64,000 nt of DNA from Eledone cirrhosa. Taxonomy: Eukaryota. The notes beneath the pieces were generated by a model. It ran no database searches, had not been told where the DNA came from, and saw only the letters and a program-made list of their open reading frames with translations. Position 1 is the first letter of the stretch; each line of letters starts with the position of its first letter. Shown one piece after another: positions 2,786 through 50,678 of this stretch. Made by a program: the position numbers and the translations under genes. The stretch spans positions 95,294,001-95,358,000 of the forward strand of contig OZ024741.1 of the NCBI GenBank assembly GCA_964016885.1, in the 5' to 3' direction.

Positions 2786-3129
2786 GGAGGCACATGGCTT
2801 AGTGGTTAGAGCATTGGCCTTGCAATCGAAAGGTTGTGAGTTCAATTCTCAGACCGGGTGATGTGTTGTTTCCTTGAGCAAGACACTTTATTTCACATTG
2901 CTCCAGTTTACTCAGCTGTAGAAATGAGATGATAGGGACTGAGGTCCCTATCATTCCACTGTAAAGTGGACGTGTAGGCGCCACGGCAAAAAAGCATCCA
3001 CCACTCACTGTAAATGAGGTTGGTGTTAGGAAGGGCATCCAGCTGTAGAAATCAAGCCAGAATCAGTTCCCGTCCCACCCTTGCAAGCAGGGAAAAGTGG
3101 ACGTAAAATGATGATGATGATGATGATGA
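2786..3129 (+). mobile_element. tRNA-derived CORE-type SINE, full length
   Basis: A box TGGCTTAGTGG, B box GAGTTCAATTC, CORE-like CCTTGAGCAAGACACTT...CAGTTTACTCAGCTGTAGAAATG, RTE-derived 3' tail and (ATG)n. Confidence 0.88.
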
Positions 3130-6991: not shown

Positions 6992-7942
6992 TCTATATAT
7001 ATAAAACTGTGGTTGTCTGTCTGTCTATCGATTTTTGGCACACATCTCCTCTTAGAATCTCTCACGGAATTGCACTGAAATTGCTATACTTGTACATTGA
7101 GCCCTAGCGAAGACATTGGAAAAAAAAAATTTCAAATTGACCCACCCTATGTGACGGAATCGAATATAATGTATCGATTTTTGAGCGTAAGTTATCAGTT
7201 ATTTCCCTTTGTTCTGTTTACATTGAGCGTCTTACGTAAAAAATTACGCTGGCTTTCTCAGCGTTTAAAATGACATTAACACAATACACGAAGCTTCCGT
7301 TTTGCTTCATTTCCATTTAAAAGCATTTTAAAACAATATTTTTACTTGAAAACAAGTCTATTTAAAGACTACGTAAAACAAGCAAATATTTCGTCGTTAG
7401 GCGTGCAGACAGACAGTCATGCAGAGAGGTGATATACGCGTGCAGACAGACAGTCGTGCAGAGAGGTGATATAGGCGTGCAGACAGACAGTCGTGCAGAG
7501 AGGTGATATAGGCGTGCAGACAGACAGTCGTGCAGAGAGGTGATATAGGCGTGCAGACAGACAGTCGTGCAGAGAGGTGATATAGGTGTGCAGACAGACA
7601 GTCGTGCAGAGAGGTGATATAGGCGTGCAGACAGACATAACTGATAATTTGGTTACGCTAATGTTTTTCTCTGCGTTGCAGTGTTTACATTTTCGATCTT
7701 TGTTAATAAGTAACCAGTGCAGTTTCTATCCCCAGCATCCTCTTTTGTTATAACATTCGGGTTATCGTTATGTTTTCTTAACTTCATAAGGCATATTGTT
7801 GGTTGAGGGAATATTAATCAAAAACACCACATGCAAGTCTGCACAGTAGACACTACAGTTTTTAAGCCAAGAAAGAAACTTAACATTGTAACTTTAACAC
7901 AGCTACTGAGCGACCTCGAGCAACGCCGGGCTTTACTGCTAG
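6992..7942 (+). mobile_element. Non-autonomous Helitron
   Basis: 5' TCTATATATATAAAA, (GTCT)n near the 5' end, 3' hairpin CGAGCAACGCCGGG and terminal CTAG, inserted between A and T; second copy at 21344-22243. Confidence 0.85.
7399..7637 (+). repeat. 37-bp minisatellite inside the Helitron (~6.5 units)
   Basis: Unit AGGCGTGCAGACAGACAGTCGTGCAGAGAGGTGATAT. Confidence 0.95.
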
Positions 7943-13484: not shown

Positions 13485-14240
13485 TGTCCATCTTCCATGC
13501 TTGCATGGGTTTGGACGGGAATTTTCCCACTTGAGGCAAGATTGGTTGTCTTGCTCGTATAGGACTGTCTGGCGGGTTTTCTACGGCTGGATGCCCTTCC
13601 TAACACCAACCCCGTTTACAGTGTGGACTGGGAGGTTTTTACCGCGTTACCTACATGGCCACATTACAGCGTGGACTGTGTGTTTTTTTTTTGTTGTGAC
13701 ACCTACACGACCTAATTTATTTTGGACTGGATGTTGTGGTACCAACATAACTTTACATCGAAAGAGGTTGGTGTGGATGGAGTGCGGGTAGTGGGACGGG
13801 GGTGTATTTTTGTTAAGAGGTGCCTACTGACTGTAGGTTTCGCTTTGTACTTAGGCAAGGCGGGTTTTCCGTATTACTGTGTAGCGCCAAAGTTCTCGGT
13901 CCAGTGACATTGTCTTGGAGAGGTGTAAGTGTGTGAGGTCGGAATTTATCAAGTCCCAGGTTTTTCTGGGTCTGCCTACTCCACTGCTACCGTCTATTTT
14001 TTTTTTTTTTTTTATCGCCCTGCACTTTGTTATACAGCTGTCGTCTTTCATGCGCATCACGTGACCATACCAACGTAGTCTTCTCTCGAGTAAACAACAT
14101 CTGATCTCTCTTATTCCTAATTTCTCACTTAGTTCATTTTTGCTTTGCCGTTCACGTATATTACTATTACACATCCAACGGAGCATGCAAGCTTCGTTCC
14201 TCTCCAGTCTGCGTATATCCTCTGCACACATTGCATGCCC
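13485..14240 (-). mobile_element. RTE LINE 3' fragment (family B)
   Basis: ORF 13851-14231 [19 protein letters not shown]...GRPRKTW, followed by the 3' UTR. Confidence 0.9.
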
Positions 14241-14994
<754 letters not shown>

Positions 14995-17621: not shown

Positions 17622-17630
<9 letters not shown>

Positions 17631-18027
17631 TAAACAAATAATGAATAAACAATTCCTTATATTAAACAAAAAAAGTTCATTATTTAACGATCGTTTCTAG
17701 GGTATATATGTGTTATAATTGGTATGCATATTCAACAGATCTATGTACAAAATTATACAAAATTATACAAATTATCAAGATTAAATATACATACCTAACA
17801 CATATATACGCCGTCTTCAAAAATATTTCTGAAGACGGCGTATATATGTGTTAGGTATGTATATTTAATCTTGATAATTTGTATAATTTTGTATAATTTT
17901 GTACATAGATCTGTTGAATATGCATACCAATTATAACACATATATACCCTAGAAACGATCGTTAAATAATGAACTTTTTTTGTTTAATATAAGGAATTGT
18001 TTATTCATTATTTGTTTAATATTTTAT
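17622..18027. repeat. 406-bp spacer-less palindrome
   Basis: Arms are reverse complements about 17824.5; one A/C mismatch seen (17820/17829). Confidence 0.95.
17824..17968 (+). ncRNA. Type I hammerhead ribozyme with extended stem II
   Basis: tattt-CTGAAGA-long stem II (gtatatatgtgtta/taacacatatatac)-GAAA-cgatcgTT-aaata. Confidence 0.65.
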
Positions 18028-18215
18028 CTTGACTCTGTATACCGTTTATCTTTCACCGAAAGTGGATTTTCATTACATCTCTTCTTTCCATGATATCCGG
18101 AATACATTGAGTTCTTCATACGGATTGGACACTACCGTAAACTCTTGGCAGATTTATCTACATATATATATATATATATATATTATATGTATTATGTATA
18201 TATATAGATATATAT

Positions 18216-18275
<60 letters not shown>

Positions 18276-18329
18276 GCATTATGTATATATATATATATAT
18301 TATATGTATTATATATATATATATTATAT

Positions 18330-18373
<44 letters not shown>

Positions 18374-18385
18374 ATATATTATATG

Positions 18386-18425
<40 letters not shown>

Positions 18426-18570
18426 TATATATATATATGTATTATATATATATATATATATATATGTATTATATATATATTATATGTATTATATATATAT
18501 ATATATATGTATTATATATATATTATATGTATTATATATATATATATATGTATTATATATATATTATATG

Positions 18571-18612
<42 letters not shown>

Positions 18613-18629
18613 TATATATATATTATATG

Positions 18630-18671
<42 letters not shown>

Positions 18672-18910
18672 TATATATATATATATATTATATGTTAAGT
18701 TAAAGTGTACATCTACATATGTATACGGAAGTATTAGTATGCATATAAATACACACATGTATACATATGTACATGTACTCAGCTTTTCACTAGACACTTT
18801 ACAGTGAGTGTCAGCTAGTCTGTATGTAACCACACAGACGGACCGGGTTTTAGAGTCATACGGGTTTTCAAGGAAACACATTTCCTCTATTCTCTAGAGG
18901 GCCAGACAGG

Positions 18911-18955
18911 AATATTGGACTAGTTTCGATGTTATTACATCTCATCAGCAATATT
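18911..18955 (-). ncRNA. Minimal type I hammerhead ribozyme
   Basis: Reverse complement reads aatattg-CTGATGA-gatgt aata acatc-GAAA-ctaGTC-caatatt. Confidence 0.92.
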
Positions 18956-19379
18956 TACCCATCTTCCGGCTTCTCTGGAGAATTGTAAAAGCACATATCG
19001 TTATATGCTTTTTCTATGAAAATTAGTAGTGGGTAGACTAATTTGCATAGAACGTGAGTCATTGTACGCACCGGTTCAGCGGAAACGATAAAAACAAATA
19101 ACGAAACGAAATTAAATTTCGTTTCGCTTCTAACTCACTTTTGTATGACTGACGCTTAAACAATTAAGTTAAAGTGTACATCTACATATGTATACGGAAG
19201 TATTAGTATGCATATAAATACACACATGTATACATATGTACATGTACTCAGCTTTTCACTAGACACTTTACAGTGAGTGTCAGCTAGTCTGTATGTAACC
19301 ACACAGACGGACCGGGTTTTAGAGTCATACGGGTTTTCAAGGAAACACATTTCCTCTATTCTCTAGAGGGCCAGACAGG

Positions 19380-19424
19380 AATATTGGACTAGTTTCGATG
19401 TTATTACATCTCATCAGCAATATT
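19380..19424 (-). ncRNA. Minimal type I hammerhead ribozyme
   Basis: Identical to 18911-18955, 469 bp away. Confidence 0.92.
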
Positions 19425-19942
19425 TACCCATCTTCCGGCTTCTCTGGAGAATTGTAAAAGCACATATCGTTATATGCTTTTTCTATGAAAATTAGTAGTG
19501 GGTAGACTAATTTGCATAGAACGTGAGTCATTGTACGCACCGGTTCAGCGGAAACGATAAAAACAAATAACGAAACGAAATTAAATTTCGTTTCGCTTCT
19601 AACTCACTTTTGTATGACTGACGCTTAAACAATTAAGTTAAAGTGTACATCTACATATGTATACGGAAGTATTAGTATGCATATAAATACACACATGTAT
19701 ACATATGTACATGTACTCAGCTTTTCACTGGACACTTTACAGTGAGTGTCAGCTAGTCTGTGAGTTAGAAGCGAAACGAAATTTAATTTCGTTTCGTTAT
19801 TTGTTTTTATCGTTTCCGCTGAACCGGTGCGTACAATGACTCACGTTCTATGCAAATTAGTCTACCCACTACTAATTTTCATAGAAAAAGCATATAACGA
19901 TATGTGCTTTTACAATTCTCCAGAGAAGCCGGAAGATGGGTA

Positions 19943-19987
19943 AATATTGCTGATGAGATGTAATAACATCGAAACTAGTCCAATATT
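19943..19987 (+). ncRNA. Minimal type I hammerhead ribozyme (GUC cleavage predicted after 19980)
   Basis: 7-bp stem I, CUGAUGA, 5-bp stem II with G-C base, GAAA, palindromic CUAG stem III, GUC triplet. Confidence 0.93.
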
Positions 19988-20411
19988 CCTGTCTGGCCCT
20001 CTGGAGAATAGAGGAAATGTGTTTCCTTGAAAACCCGTATGACTCTAAAACCCGGTCCGTCTGTGTGGTTACATACAGACTAGCTGACACTCACTGTAAA
20101 GTGTCTAGTGAAAAGCTGAGTACATGTACATATGTATACATGTGTGTATTTATATGCATACTAATACTTCCGTATACATATGTAGATGTACACTTTAACT
20201 TAATTGTTTAGCGCGTCAGTCATACAAAAGTGAGTTAGAAGCGAAACAAAATTTAATTTCGTTTCGTTATTTGTTTTATCGTTTCCGCTGAACCGGTGCT
20301 TACAATGACTCACGTTCTATGCAAATTAGTCTACCCACTACTAATTTTCATAGAAAAAGCATATAACGATATGTGCTTTTACAATTCTCCAGAGAAGCCG
20401 GAAGATGGGTA

Positions 20412-20456
20412 AATATTGCTGATGAGATGTAATAACATCGAAACTAGTCCAATATT
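20412..20456 (+). ncRNA. Minimal type I hammerhead ribozyme (cleavage predicted after 20449)
   Basis: Identical to 19943-19987. Confidence 0.93.
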
Positions 20457-21065
20457 CCTGTCTGGCCCTCTGGAGAATAGAGGAAATGTGTTTCCTTGAA
20501 AACCCGTATGACTCTAAAACCCGGTCCGTCTGTGTGGTTACATACAGACTAGCTGACACTCACTGTAAAGTGTCTAGTGAAAAGCTGAGTACATGTACAT
20601 ATGTATACATGTGTGTATTTATATGCATACTAATACTTCCGTATACATATGTAGATGTACACTTTAACTTAATTGTTTAAGCGTCAGTCATACAAAAGTG
20701 AGTTAGAAGCGAAACGAAATTTAATTTCGTTTCGTTATTTGTTTTTATATTATATGTATTATATATATATATATATTAGATGTATTATACTTATATATAT
20801 ATTATATGTATTATATATATATATTATATTATATATATATTATATGTATTATATATGTATTATATTATATGTATTATATTATATATATATATATTATATG
20901 TATTATATATATATATTATATGTATTATATATATATATTATATGTATTATATATATATATTATATGTATTATATATTATATGTATTATATATATATATTA
21001 TATGTATTATATATATATATTATATGTATTATATATATATTATATTATATTTATAATATGGATTG

Positions 21066-21343: not shown

Positions 21344-22243
21344 CTAGCAGTAAAGCCCGGCGTTGCTCGGGGTCGCTCAGTAGCTGTGTTAAAGTTACAA
21401 TGTTAAGTTTCTTTTTTGGCTTAAAAACTGTAGTGTCTACGGTGCAGACTTGCATGTGGTGTTTTTGATTAATATTCCCTCAACCAACAATATGCCTTAT
21501 GAAGTTAAGAAAACATAACGATAACCCGAATGTTATAACAAAAGAGGATGTTGGGGATAAAAACTGCACTGGTTATTTATTAACAAAGATCGAAAATGTA
21601 AACATTGCAACGCAGAGAAAAACATTAGCGTAACCAAATTATCAGTTTTGTCTGTCTGCACGCCTATATCATCTCTCTGCACGACTGTCTGTCTGCACGC
21701 CTATATCACCTCTCTGCACGACTGTCTGTCTGCACGCCTATATCACCTCTCTGCACGACTGTCTGTCTGCACGCCTATATCACCTCTCTGCACGACTGTC
21801 TGTCTGCACGACTGTCTGTCTGCACGCCTAACGACGAAATATTTGCTTGTTTTACGTAGTCTTTAAATAGACTTGTTTTCAAGTAAAAATATTGTTTTAA
21901 AATGCTTTTAAATGGAAATGAAGCAAAACGGAAGCTTAGTGTTCGTGTATTGTGTTAATGTCATTTTAAACGCTGAGAAAGCCAGCGTAATTTTTTACGT
22001 AAGACGCTCAATGTAAACAGAACAAAGGGAAATAACTGATAACTTACGCTCAAAAATCGATACATTATATTCGATTTCGTCACATAGGGTGGGTCAATTT
22101 GAAATATTTTTTTTCCCGATGTCTTCGCTAGGGCTCAATGTACAAGTATAGCAATTTTGGTGCAATTCCGTGAGAGATTCTAAGAGGAGATGTGTGCCAA
22201 AAATCGATAGACAGACAGACAACCACAGTTTTATATATATAGA
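21344..22243 (-). mobile_element. Non-autonomous Helitron (copy 2)
   Basis: Reverse complement of 6992-7942 with the same TC/CTAG ends and a shorter 37-bp minisatellite (~21649-21828). Confidence 0.85.
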
Positions 22244-22554: not shown

Positions 22555-23372
22555 AAGGAACAGGCATAAATACTATAAAATGTACACAATGTAGATCTTG
22601 GGTACACAAGTGATGTAGTGGGAAAGCAGGCAAACTAACAGGTAGAGAAAAATATGTATACATGCAGTAGATGTACAGGGAAATTTGACAGTAGAAGTCG
22701 CATTGATAGACACATTTTTCAGATGCAGGAGGGCGCTATAGAAGTGGTGGATAGCTTCCGGTACCTAGGAGATCAGATTAGCATGGGAGGAGGGTGTTCC
22801 GAGGCCATAGTATCTAGAATAAGGACGGTTTGGAAGAAGTTGAGGGAGTTGCTTCGTCTGCTGACGAAGAAGGGTTTCTCCCTGTGTACGAAAGGCCGGT
22901 TATATGATACCTGTGTGAGGTGCGCGATGCTGCATGGTAGTGAGTCATGGGCAGCAACTGCAGAGGATATGCGATGGCTGGAGAGAAATGAGGCAAGCAT
23001 GCTCCGTTGGATGTACAACGCCAATGTACGTGAACGACCGAGCATGGATGTGTTGAGAGAGAAACTGTGTATAAGAGGGATAAGTTGTAGTGTGCGGGAG
23101 AGAAGACTGCGATGGTATGGACATGTGATGCACATGGAGGATGACCGCTAGGTAAAGAAGTGTTAAGAAATGCCGGTTGAAGGAAAACGCAGTAGAGGTA
23201 GACCACAAAAAACATGGGCAGAGGTGGTGAGAGCAGACCTCAGATCGCTGAAGCTCACGGTGGAGATGACAAAGGACCGTGACAAGTGGAGAAATGCTGT
23301 GCTCAATCGGACCCGTCCCACCCTTGCAAGCAGGGAAAAGCGGACATAAAATGATAATGATGATGATGATGA
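22555..23372 (+). mobile_element. RTE LINE 3' fragment (family A)
   Basis: CTQC..WVHK*C...[26 protein letters not shown]; short tail CCCACCCTTGCAAGCAGGGAAAAG and (ATG)n. Confidence 0.9.
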
Positions 23373-23744: not shown

Positions 23745-23945
23745 TTATATATATATATTATATGTATTATATATATATATTATATGTATTATATATATAT
23801 ATATTTTGTTTCTGAATTTGTTTAGCAAGATTCTTTATCTGAAAACGTGTGTTGAAACCGATATTGTTATACTTTGGGAGGGTCATGTTGCCAGTAAGAA
23901 ACCAATAAGAAACTGGTGCGTGTGTTTCAACAATATATATATATA

Positions 23946-24763: not shown

Positions 24764-26083
24764 CATCATCATCAGGTTTAGCGTCCGTGTTCCACGCTTG
24801 CATGGGTTTGGACGGGGGTTTTCCCACTTGAGGCAAGAGTGGTTGTCTTGCTCGCATAGGACTGTCTGGCGGGTTTTCTACAGTTGGATGCCCTTCCTAA
24901 CACCAACCACATTTACACTGTGGGGCTGGGAGGTTTTTACCGTGTTGCCTACACGGCCACATTACAGCGTGGACTGTCTGGCGGGTTTTCTACAGCTGGA
25001 TGCCCTTCCTAACACCAACCACATTTACAGTGTGGGGCTGGGAGGTTTTTACCGTGTTGCCTACACGGCCACATTTACAGCGTGGACTGTGTGTTTTTTG
25101 TCGTGACACCTACACGATCTCATTTGTTTCGGCCTGGATGTTGTGGGACCAACATAACTTTACATTGAAAGGGGCGGTGTGGGTGGGGTGGAGGTGGTGG
25201 GACGGGTGTGTGTTTTGATAGAGGTGCCTACTGACTGTAGTAGGTTTTTACTTTGTATTTAGGTAAGGCGGGTCTTCTCTATTACTGAGTACCGCCAAAG
25301 GTCTCGGTCCAGTGACATTGTCTTGGAGAGGTGTAAGCGTGTGAGGTCGGAATTTATCAGCTCGTCCCATGTTTTTCTGGGTCTGCCTACTCCGTGGCTA
25401 CCGTCTATCTTTATTGCCCTGCACTTTGTTATACAGCTGTCGTCTTTCATGCGCATCACGTGACCGTACCAACGTAGCCTTCTCTCGAGTAAACAACATC
25501 TGATCCCTCTTATTTCTAATTTTTTCCTTAGTTCGTTTATGCTTTGCCGTTCACGTATATTACTATTGCACATCCAGCGGAGCATGCAAGCTTCGTTCCT
25601 CTCTAGTCTGCGTATATCCTCTGCACACAATGCCCAGGTCTCACTGCCATGCAGCATTGCTGTTCGTATGCAGGCATCATACAACCTGACTTTCATTTTT
25701 AGGGAGAACCCTCTAGCGGCTAATAGTGGTATAAGCTCTCTGAACTTTTTCCATCCAGTTCTGACTCTAGCTACTGTACTTTCAGAGCACCCTCCCCCAC
25801 TGCTGATTATGTCACCCAGATAACGGAAGCTGTCCACTATTTCTATAGAACCCTCTGCGCAGTTGAAGGAGCTAGTATTTTGTGGGCACTTGCTGCTACT
25901 TATTGCACCAGAGCACCGGCCACATGTAAAATCTATGTTCTTAGTTAGCTTACCTGTGATCCCACTACATCTTTTATGCACCCATACTTTGCATTTGGGA
26001 CATAAAATGGAGTATCTACCTACGCCTTTCCTACACACTGAGCATGGCCATTTCCCCGATGGGACCGCCGCCTTATTTTCTTT
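24763..26083 (-). mobile_element. RTE LINE 3' fragment (family B) with an uninterrupted ~275-codon frame
   Basis: ORF 25259-26083 with a C4HC3 finger, FRYLGD and RRLRWYGH; 3' UTR with a 112-bp tandem duplication. Confidence 0.92.
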
Positions 26084-26468
26084 ATATATATATATATATA
26101 TATGGAATAGAAGGAAACAAAATTTCATTTCTCGCTCTTAGTCCGGCACTTACTTAAATGTAAGTATGTATGTATGTATACGTACATACATATATGTATA
26201 CAGACGTACAGTAGTATGTATATATATACACACATGCACACATATATACATGCACGTATCGGTTTACCGAACATTTATTATAATGCTTAGTTTGTTTGTT
26301 TGTAAACAAACAAACAGTCCGAATTATACCATACAGTGTTTAGGCAACCACGTCACCTTTTTGTTCAACACTGACACTGACACTGACACTGACACTGTTT
26401 CCAACAGTAATGGTCGCGTTCATTAAGGGTATGTCAATATTTATTTATAAAACTGCTCTATATTATAT

Positions 26469-49280: not shown

Positions 49281-50678
49281 TCATCATCATCATCATCTTT
49301 GTTTAACGTCCATTTTCCACGATAGCATGGGTTAGACGGGAGTTGTCCCACTTGAGGCAAGGCTAGTCGTGTGACCGTGTCTTGCTCATATAGGACTATC
49401 TGGCAGGTTTTCTACGGCTGGATGCCCTTCCTAACACCAACCACATTTACAGTGTGGAACTTTTTACCATGTTACCTACACAGCCACATTACGGCGGGGA
49501 CTGTGTGTGTTTTTTGTCGTGACACCTACACGAACTCAATCTCATTTTCTCGTGCGGTTGGTCGGAGTGGGAGGATAGGGTAGGAGTAGTAGATTGGGTT
49601 GTATATTTGGTTAAGAGGTGCCTACTGACTAGGTTTCGCTTTGTACATAGGCAAGGCGGATCTTCTGTATTACTGAGTAGCGCCAAAGATCTCGGTCCAG
49701 AGACATTGTCTTAGAGAGATGTAAGTGTGTGAGGTCGGAATTTATCAGATCATCCCAGGTTTTTCTGGGCCTACTGACTCCGTAACTACCATCAATTTTG
49801 ATCGCCCTGCACTTTTTTATACAGCTGTCGTCTTTCATGCGCACCACGTGACCGTACCAACGTCGTCTTCTCTCAAGTAAACAGCATCTGATCCCTCTTA
49901 TTCCTAATTTCTCACTTAGTTCATTTATGCTTTGCCGTTCACGTATATTACTATTATACATCCAATGGAGCACGTATGCTTCATTCCTTTCCAGTCTACG
50001 CAGGTCCTCTGTACGCAATGCCCATGTCTCACTGCCATGTAGCATTGCTGTTCGTATACAGGCATCATACAATCTGCCTTTCATTTTTAGAGAGAAACCT
50101 TTTGTGACCAACAGCGGTATAAGCTCTCTGAACTTTTTCCATCCCGTTCTGACTCTTCACCACTGCTGATTTCGTCACCCAGGTAACGGAAAGTGTCTAC
50201 TATTTCTATAGAACCATCTATAATGGAAGGAGCTAGTATCCTTTGGACACTTGCTACTTATTGCACCTGAGCATTGGCCACATATAAAGTCTACGTTCTT
50301 AGATAGTTTACCTGTGATCCCACTACATCTTTTATGTACCCATACTTTGCATTTGGGACATAAAATGGAATTTCTGCCTACTCCTTTCCTACACACTGAG
50401 CATGGCCATTTCCCTGAGGGCACCTGTGCCCTATTTTCCTTTCTACAAACTAGAACTTTAGTCTTAGACAAGTTAACTTTAAGGCCTTTTTATTCTAGGC
50501 CATGCTTCCATGTTTCGAATTTCTTCTCTAGTTCAGCCATTGATTCAGCTATGAGCGTTAGATCATCTGCGTATAGGAGTTCCCATGGGCAGCCGGTCTT
50601 GAACTCCTCTGTTATAGCCTGAAGGGCAATAATAAATAAGAGGGGGCTAAGGACAGAGCCTTGATGAACACCAACTTT
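49281..50678 (-). pseudogene. RTE LINE (family B) fragment including the reverse transcriptase core
   Basis: [29 protein letters not shown]4HC3 finger, RRRRWYGH; frameshifted; 3' UTR and (ATG)n. Confidence 0.93.

Follow-up and report, generated by a model that had tools for sequence, protein, structure and literature searches.

The 64,000-nucleotide stretch of contig OZ024741.1 analysed here, which we refer to as the window, carries at positions 18695-20748 two divergent arrays of one 469-bp non-coding unit (2.28 + 2.11 units) with tandem hammerhead ribozymes. From its sequence, its insertion ends and its relatives in the genome we conclude that this is very probably a non-autonomous hammerhead element mobilised by a Penelope-like element (PLE). 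At the sequence level it has the features by which non-LTR (long terminal repeat) retrozymes are recognised, and it appears to behave as a non-autonomous PLE. We further consider it probable, with less assurance, that the explanation as a whole is a PLE-mobilised retrozyme that spreads by way of a circular monomer.

An earlier reading of the sequence (the original prediction) had proposed head-to-head multimers of a 469-bp unit in an (AT)n tract, and it can be seen in Table 1 that this is the layout of the locus; the period is 469 and the left and right arms are approximately 99-100% complementary. Its count of four full units, each with a hammerhead, held in part: a pairing-checked scan of the whole window recovered four intact hammerheads and no others, against only two complete cleavage-to-cleavage monomers, one in each arm. 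The right-arm monomer is the least typical unit, with five differences from the family majority. As had also been claimed, there is no recognisable protein-coding open reading frame (ORF), the longest that begins with ATG in a trimer of the unit being 64 aa. The GC content of the unit (36.9%) is below 50%, and no LTR layout was seen, no search having been aimed at a primer-binding site or polypurine tract. The interrupted motif TATTATATGTAT is found in seven copies in the left flank and ten copies in the right flank, and the element therefore sits within a pre-existing (TA)n tract; a target-site duplication was indiscernible at the loci examined, the flanks being (TA)n.

To describe the ends we use the phase, that is the number of bases after the GUC cleavage site. 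Ends were mapped at the window locus and at 36 others, giving 37 loci and 63 arms; the 36 derive from 40 stretches among the top matches to the unit, with L027, L059 and L060 merged into L026, L058 and L045 and L057 dropped as a duplicate of L056. We found that the outer ends fall almost entirely at two sites approximately 70 nt apart, 30 being 'long' (phase 295-299), 31 'short' (phase 222-231) and 2 elsewhere. All of the two-armed loci (26/37) were divergent, and 23 of these 26 had one long and one short end, the exceptions being one long/long and two long/other; 60/63 arms were directly followed by TA repeat. The inner 5' ends were spread around the unit (Rayleigh p 0.18), and where junctions were measured the arms overlapped by 1-6 nt in 16/24 cases, most commonly by 2 nt as in the window (9/24), with insertions in 6/24. 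The original prediction was thus correct that the arms of the window end at different phases (223 and 299), neither at the cleavage site; however, its reading of these ends as random permutations of a circle does not stand, since 61/63 outer ends lie at two fixed sites, and randomly permuted outer ends can be ruled out. L1-type twin priming on one linear template was likewise rejected, as it predicts that the long-end arm stops at approximately phase 226-231, where the short-end arm starts, and only 2/27 long arms of two-armed loci stopped at phase 224-234. The same ends are kept in sister subfamilies of 89-96% identity, where 9/11 two-armed loci had one long and one short end. Among the subfamilies only 4/88 positions of the end region are variable versus 45/212 in phases 1-212 (the p value of 2e-4 is overstated, the sequences being related), and we interpret this conservation as that expected for an RNA element recognised by a protein.

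Insertions of PLEs contain partial tandems, an inverted 5'-truncated copy and a 30-40-bp tail that is often at one end only, and are biased to microsatellites (PMC8557442). The PLE Poseidon initiates reverse transcription at two neighbouring internal positions, the intervening sequence forming the tail, and its purified protein cuts and extends both strands of AT-rich DNA (PMC11167929). As our element combines an inverted 5'-truncated copy with a one-sided tail and a microsatellite target, we regard this as the footprint of a PLE insertion.

Autonomous elements with this footprint are present in the same genome. There were 10,596 GIY-YIG candidates, of which 150 were scored and 25 short loci and 20 long stretches were examined, and in a PLE protein search 150 of 18,863 candidates were scored and two examined; Pfam recognised reverse transcriptase (RT) and GIY-YIG domains in 6/8 candidate ORFs and RT alone in 2/8. 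The autonomous RT + GIY-YIG elements lie within (TA)n and show an inverted copy and tails of 57-64 nt, with a hammerhead-like motif upstream. L151 and L152 have ORFs of 1,239 and 1,227 aa, both with a CX4CxxC linker by sequence (L151 is without a Pfam match). They are flanked by (TA)n, their repeat contains a hammerhead-like motif and 57 nt separate the short from the long end, and L151 carries an inverted 5' copy; the microsatellite bias of Neptune has been hypothesised to depend on a CX2-5CxxC linker (PMC8557442). Elements of the L136/L139 type have tails of 64 nt, and in their hammerhead-like motif C3 and G8 are replaced by U and A. In the autonomous PLE repeats of L131, L136, L139, L137 and L143 the motif reads UUGAAAA instead of CUGANGA, with GCAA for GAAA in L137 and L143, and motifs of this type would escape standard hammerhead descriptors. 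Judged by its sequence organisation, the 469-bp element is a miniature of this autonomous PLE architecture. The autonomous elements that we examined from the two protein searches were without homology to the unit, and searches with hammerhead-variant patterns gave sister subfamilies and diverged single motifs, with no ORF-linked copy among those fetched.

Two further PLE-type insertions were noted in the window. One adjoins the element at 17622-18162 and consists of a perfect 203-bp inverted repeat (17622-17824/17825-18027) with an approximately 135-nt one-sided tail in (TA)n; in its right arm a motif resembling a hammerhead (CUGAAGA near 17830, GAAAC near 17953) carries a palindromic GAUC loop and has a very long insertion in stem II. 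Another copy of this insertion is found in L140. The other, at 23800-23930 on the minus strand, is a short 3'-end fragment of an L151-type PLE, including the long end, in (TA)n.

The ribozyme has the parts originally described, namely a 7-bp stem I, CUGAUGA, a 5-bp stem II, GAAA, CUAG and GUC; stem III is a single base pair capped by the palindromic CUAG loop, and stem I is extended by a further helix past a bulge. In the hammerhead at 19943-19987, stem I is formed by 19943-19949/19981-19987, followed by CUGAUGA at 19950-19956, stem II at 19957-19970 and then GAAA. A hammerhead scan, as the original prediction had suggested, matched all four to Rfam Hammerhead_HH9 (E 2e-5 to 4e-5, 32 bits), short of the gathering score of 52. 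The minimal hammerhead is defined by a helix II of 7-8 bp with an extra 5' base and a helix I of 4-5 bp (PMC4209133). Because helix I is here 7 bp with an extension, and helix II is 5 bp without the extra base, the sequence is that of a canonical animal type I ribozyme and not the minimal PLE form by those definitions, and the earlier term 'minimal' has to be dropped.

The core and stem II were intact in 177/186 extracted monomers. Compared with shuffled sequences, the predicted fold of the monomer gave z = -8.9 when linear and -11.6 when circular (40 shuffles for the latter), and it keeps the hammerhead formed (stems I and II), with a stem I probability of 0.97 in the dimer context. Covariation among 15 subfamily monomers identified four compensatory pairs, one of them in hammerhead stem II, versus 0-1 in slid controls; of the 145 pairs of the predicted circle, 109 are invariant, 4 compensatory, 19 one-sided and 13 broken in some rows. 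Rfam microRNA matches in the window were sub-threshold and were rejected as TA-rich hairpins.

The element belongs to a large family. The exact 31-nt hammerhead core is found at 3,096 sites in the 3.0-Gb genome and a reversed control pattern at none; together with the fold z scores, this shows that the repeat is not a chance pattern. The first 100 sites fall into 36 clusters; by extrapolation there would be approximately 1,100 loci, which disposes of the possibility, raised in the original prediction, of a single-locus repeat, and all 18 clusters with cores on both strands were divergent. With the unit as query, 1,020 candidates yielded at least 400 matches on many chromosomes, the best at 98-100% identity, so that the dispersed multimers anticipated earlier were found, though not with permuted outer ends. 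Non-diagnostic substitutions among copies amount to 0.23%, and the sequences thus indicate a young and dispersed family, consistent with the recent activity that had been proposed. Subfamilies have approximately 96%, 90% and 89% identity to the window unit. More distant is a sister family of approximately 62% identity with units of approximately 420-540 bp (L141 9288-10000; window 26106-26377), whose hammerhead has a GUA/GUU triplet and the same ACUAGU palindrome and whose outer end is at the homologous long site; it has 24,472 exact cores genome-wide (control 0) and was met by chance in 14/109 stretches. An unrelated 310-bp hammerhead family (L089 5880-7800), with a palindromic ACGCGU, a GUA triplet, an approximately 34-nt tail and 3,923 exact cores, has a similar divergent layout, seen in 8/8 two-strand clusters among its first 100 sites. 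Molluscan haemocyanin domains occur in this genome in clusters of seven, which we take to fit an octopod-type cephalopod.

Which template was copied is a separate matter. A cleaved linear monomer is excluded, as one or more cleavage sites lie within 59/63 arms and 0/63 stop within 5 nt of such a site. At diagnostic site 55 both arms had the same state in 20/21 loci (expected 0.57, P 1e-4), and locus-private variants are fixed in all copies of both arms in L040 (4/4) and L055 (5/5). In 25 two-armed loci, with L021 excluded for its chimeric arm, 114 variants were informative (86 singletons, 15 fixed, 8 in several copies of one arm, and 5 polymorphic and shared) and a further 25 were not; CpG decay was rejected as the source of the private variants, accounting for only 15/169. 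Such a star-like pattern is in keeping with a single monomer having been copied repeatedly, which is the model proposed in PMC4209133 and PMC7229834. Granted mobilisation by a PLE, we therefore favour, with moderate confidence, a circular monomer as the probable template, an uncleaved linear multimer being the alternative.

In that alternative the same PLE enzyme would use the same two internal starts on an uncleaved linear read-through multimer, with local duplication restoring the length of the array and the hammerhead either silent or without relevance to this step. It fits every end statistic equally, a 1-bp stem III is expected to cleave poorly as a monomer (PMC7229834), and local array expansion does occur in this family, as seen in shared adjacent variants, in periodic variants along L058 and in a one-strand array of at least 34 units and more than 16 kb at C1:95,641,000-95,657,000 (L086, L087; 96% identity to the window unit). 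However, copying a linear RNA cannot lengthen an array, and it would be expected to carry unit-specific variants of the donor into both arms, where only 5/114 were polymorphic and shared and one of these was at a matching position. Private variants fixed over both inverted arms of short arrays require a bottleneck of a single monomer, and the retention of core and stem II in nearly all monomers also speaks against a silent hammerhead. We consider the linear multimer unlikely. In the satellite-sized expansion of L086/L087 the stem III palindrome is mutated in some units, and in L050 (3564-5780) site 80 alternates T, C, T, C, C along the array, as would be expected from a two-unit template or later conversion.

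Several observations weigh against our preferred account and limit the confidence placed in it. In vitro, uncleaved RNA is the dominant template of Poseidon and no RNA-seq reads end at the cleavage site (PMC11167929), and only 1/9 Xenopus retrozyme dimers cleaved in vitro (10.64898/2026.07.22.740005). There are 20 partly shared variants and two arm-specific haplotypes, one of them in the window (23A in both left units), which on sequence grounds point to later duplication or conversion, or to two templates, and later duplication or conversion can also homogenise arrays. The covariation is modest, given the invariant and broken pairs noted above. The end region of the unit could not be aligned convincingly with any of six sampled PLE ends or with one neighbouring element (the best, a TA-rich match, was reached by 7/200 shuffles), and the tail of approximately 70 nt exceeds the 37-64 nt of the autonomous PLE copies sampled. 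The 36 outside loci are top-scoring matches and so are biased to young, long arms. Finally, exceptions to the end rule exist in L021 (long/long), L105 (short/short) and the two arms with other ends; the chimeric arm of L021 (2657-3305) consists of an 89%-type unit and a window-type unit fused in phase near phase 300, which would reflect either a template switch or gene conversion.

A further explanation is that an autonomous PLE yet to be found inserted in 5'-truncated form and left the unit behind as its pseudo-LTR (pLTR), with tandem amplification occurring locally and later (the scenario of 10.64898/2026.07.22.740005). The footprint is exactly that of PLE insertions, Xenopus retrozymes are homologous to pLTRs (same source), and approximately 50 of approximately 1,100 loci were examined, which leaves room for a parent or driver element. 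The original prediction had also allowed for the terminal repeat of an ORF-bearing PLE. However, no RT/GIY-YIG ORF contiguous with the unit was found in the 37 loci or in two candidate spacings, and two-armed loci are all unit up to the junction. Of the kilobase-scale spacings, a PLE-like one of 4.6 kb, from the first 100 sites, turned out to represent two distinct insertions and one of 4.2 kb lay within pure array, and in L030 the upstream PLE ORF is followed by the end of that PLE, a TA tract and unrelated sequence before the unit is reached. To place 2-4 near-identical units in the arms of both sides, many duplications would have had to occur independently before divergence exceeded 0.2%, and the canonical ribozyme is unlike the motifs of the sampled pLTRs. 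We regard this explanation as improbable.

Still less credible is a mobile satellite at the DNA level that merely carries a hammerhead. Foldback and Helitron-like elements and reinserted extrachromosomal circles do show long inverted arms and tandem arrays; against this, polarity is strictly tied to the ribozyme strand (18/18 clusters), and the asymmetric fixed ends, random inner truncation and likeness to autonomous PLE insertions in the same genome also count against it. An assembly or library artefact (a read palindrome) can be dismissed almost entirely, for although inverted repeats in AT tracts are error-prone and an N gap lies elsewhere in the window, the junction is asymmetric (phases 95 and 249), the arms differ by variants and dozens of loci with unique junctions obey the same end rule.

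The PLE-mobilised circular route that we prefer would run as follows. Arrays would be transcribed, and tandem hammerheads, probably paired through the palindromic stem III, would excise 469-nt monomers that a host ligase would circularise, as in the retrozymes of coral, mussel and axolotl. The RT/GIY-YIG protein of an endonuclease-bearing PLE would bind the conserved region around phases 213-300, nick both strands of a (TA)n tract and prime at phases ~297-299 and ~222-231, one on each strand, as the observed ends, polarity and target suggest. Each cDNA would then continue around the circle for a variable distance, passing the cleavage junction, and microhomology would join the two at their random far ends, giving the divergent arms and the approximately 70-nt one-sided tail that are seen; some arrays have grown afterwards by local duplication, as the shared adjacent variants and the array of more than 16 kb show. 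More speculatively, and as a possibility that we would not yet back, the loci may be a genomic record of rolling-circle target-primed reverse transcription in which a trans-acting PLE protein would copy a 469-nt circular RNA without sequence in common with its own repeats, beginning from the two mapped internal positions and inserting the two multimeric products head to head. The at least three families (3,096, 3,923 and 24,472 cores) may then form a major SINE-like class, and tail length may link each of them to a PLE lineage of its own.

Table 1. Features of the hammerhead element and its flanks in the window
Feature	Position	Strand	Remarks
Left arm	18695-19761	- (hammerhead strand)	2.28 units; phase 95 (junction) to 'short' outer end at phase 223
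Right arm	19760-20748	+	2.11 units; phase 249 (junction) to 'long' outer end at phase 299
Inversion junction	19760-19761		two 5'-truncated arms meet with a 2-nt overlap
Type I hammerhead	19943-19987	+	predicted cut after 19980
Type I hammerhead	20412-20456	+	predicted cut after 20449
Type I hammerhead	19380-19424	-	predicted cut between 19387 and 19386
Type I hammerhead	18911-18955	-	predicted cut between 18918 and 18917
Predicted 469-nt cleavage-to-cleavage monomer	19981-20449	+	36.9% GC, strong self-pairing
Predicted 469-nt left-arm monomer	18918-19386	-	one difference from the family majority
76-nt 'tail'	20673-20748	+	right end only; between the two putative reverse-transcription start sites
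Octamer-like motif ATGCAAAT	19850-19857, 20319-20326; 19041-19048, 19510-19517	+, +; -, -	identified by sequence
Left (TA)n flank	18162-18694		interrupted motif TATTATATGTAT common to both flanks
Right (TA)n flank	20749-21059		identified by sequence

The tail contains a hairpin (20710-20734) and is among the most conserved stretches of the unit. The octamer-like motif ATGCAAAT is retained in 185/186 monomers and is also present in the 62%-identical sister family, and it is a possible promoter element. For a possible parallel with an snRNA-type promoter of newt satellite 2, literature searches returned no support. The remainder of the window is without a recognised host gene. It contains C-terminal fragments of LINE-type reverse transcriptases of an abundant kind (13851-14378, 22639-23151, 25259-26137 and 49629-50622), which we take to be RTE-like, and 37-bp GC-richer tandem repeats of near-identical unit in opposite orientations at 7398-7637 and 21649-21810.

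The questions that this family sharpens are which enzyme spreads animal retrozymes and whether the circle is the template. PLEs have been called a 'strong candidate' helper of retrozymes (PMC7229834), whose repeats have been described as without a motif that identifies the helper (PMC7761336); a footprint at near-nucleotide resolution in very young copies supplies such a signature. Two mapped start sites and a target enable a direct in vitro test by an existing assay design, and approximately 1,000 natural events are available for deciding between circular and linear templates. Retrozymes are extended to a probable cephalopod, at high copy number, and if the rolling-circle reading is true, ribozyme circles are a major SINE-like class in this genome. 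Literature searches, with most subscription papers outside their coverage, returned no description of this family in octopus or cephalopods, nor of such a footprint for a retrozyme. We conclude from the sequence evidence that the family joins the known class of non-LTR retrozymes, with unusually direct evidence of mobilisation by PLEs.

Metazoan non-LTR retrozymes are known from coral, the mussel Mytilus (350-390 bp) and axolotl (330/350 bp), with a range of 150-450 (PMC7229834). Our element resembles them in its head-to-tail non-coding units, type I hammerhead, low GC and a predicted circle that is strongly self-paired with the ribozyme left free, and its stem III is like that of axolotl HHR_Amex1 (1 bp and a palindromic tetraloop). 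It differs in that 469 bp is slightly over the range and in being known here from DNA sequence alone, and the results and discussion of that paper make no mention of insertions in (TA)n that have two divergent arms, fixed ends and a tail on one side. Newt satellite 2 is also a dispersed, transcribed tandem unit (PMC2114352) with a hammerhead that has a weak palindromic stem III (PMC7229834), although that unit is 330 bp and vertebrate. Vertebrate non-LTR retrozymes (10.64898/2026.07.22.740005) are of the same class, PLE machinery is likewise proposed for them and their family lengths are 51-972 bp. That study sampled 35 genomes (31 vertebrates, 3 insects, 1 coral and no mollusc), and its evidence is co-occurrence and pLTR phylogeny, whereas ours is insertion footprints; it reports Xenopus retrozymes with pLTR homologues, of which we found none among six sampled PLE ends, and it considers that amplification may take place locally once a PLE has inserted, whereas the arrays described here seem to have been inserted as multimers.

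The element also resembles PLEs themselves. Neptune/Nematis (PMC8557442) and Poseidon PAc (PMC11167929) share with the element the partial tandems, the inverted 5'-truncated copy, the one-sided tail, the microsatellite or AT-rich target, a hammerhead upstream of the ends and two internal RT starts. Minimal hammerheads that occur as pairs on opposite strands, with 100-700 bp between them, have been noted (PMC4209133). The tail is approximately 70 nt here, compared with 30-40 nt in published PLEs (PMC8557442; PMC11167929) and 37-64 nt in the autonomous copies of this genome. Unlike endonuclease-bearing PLEs, the element has no ORF, its unit is 469 bp compared with approximately 4.1 kb (L152), and its hammerhead is canonical where theirs is minimal.

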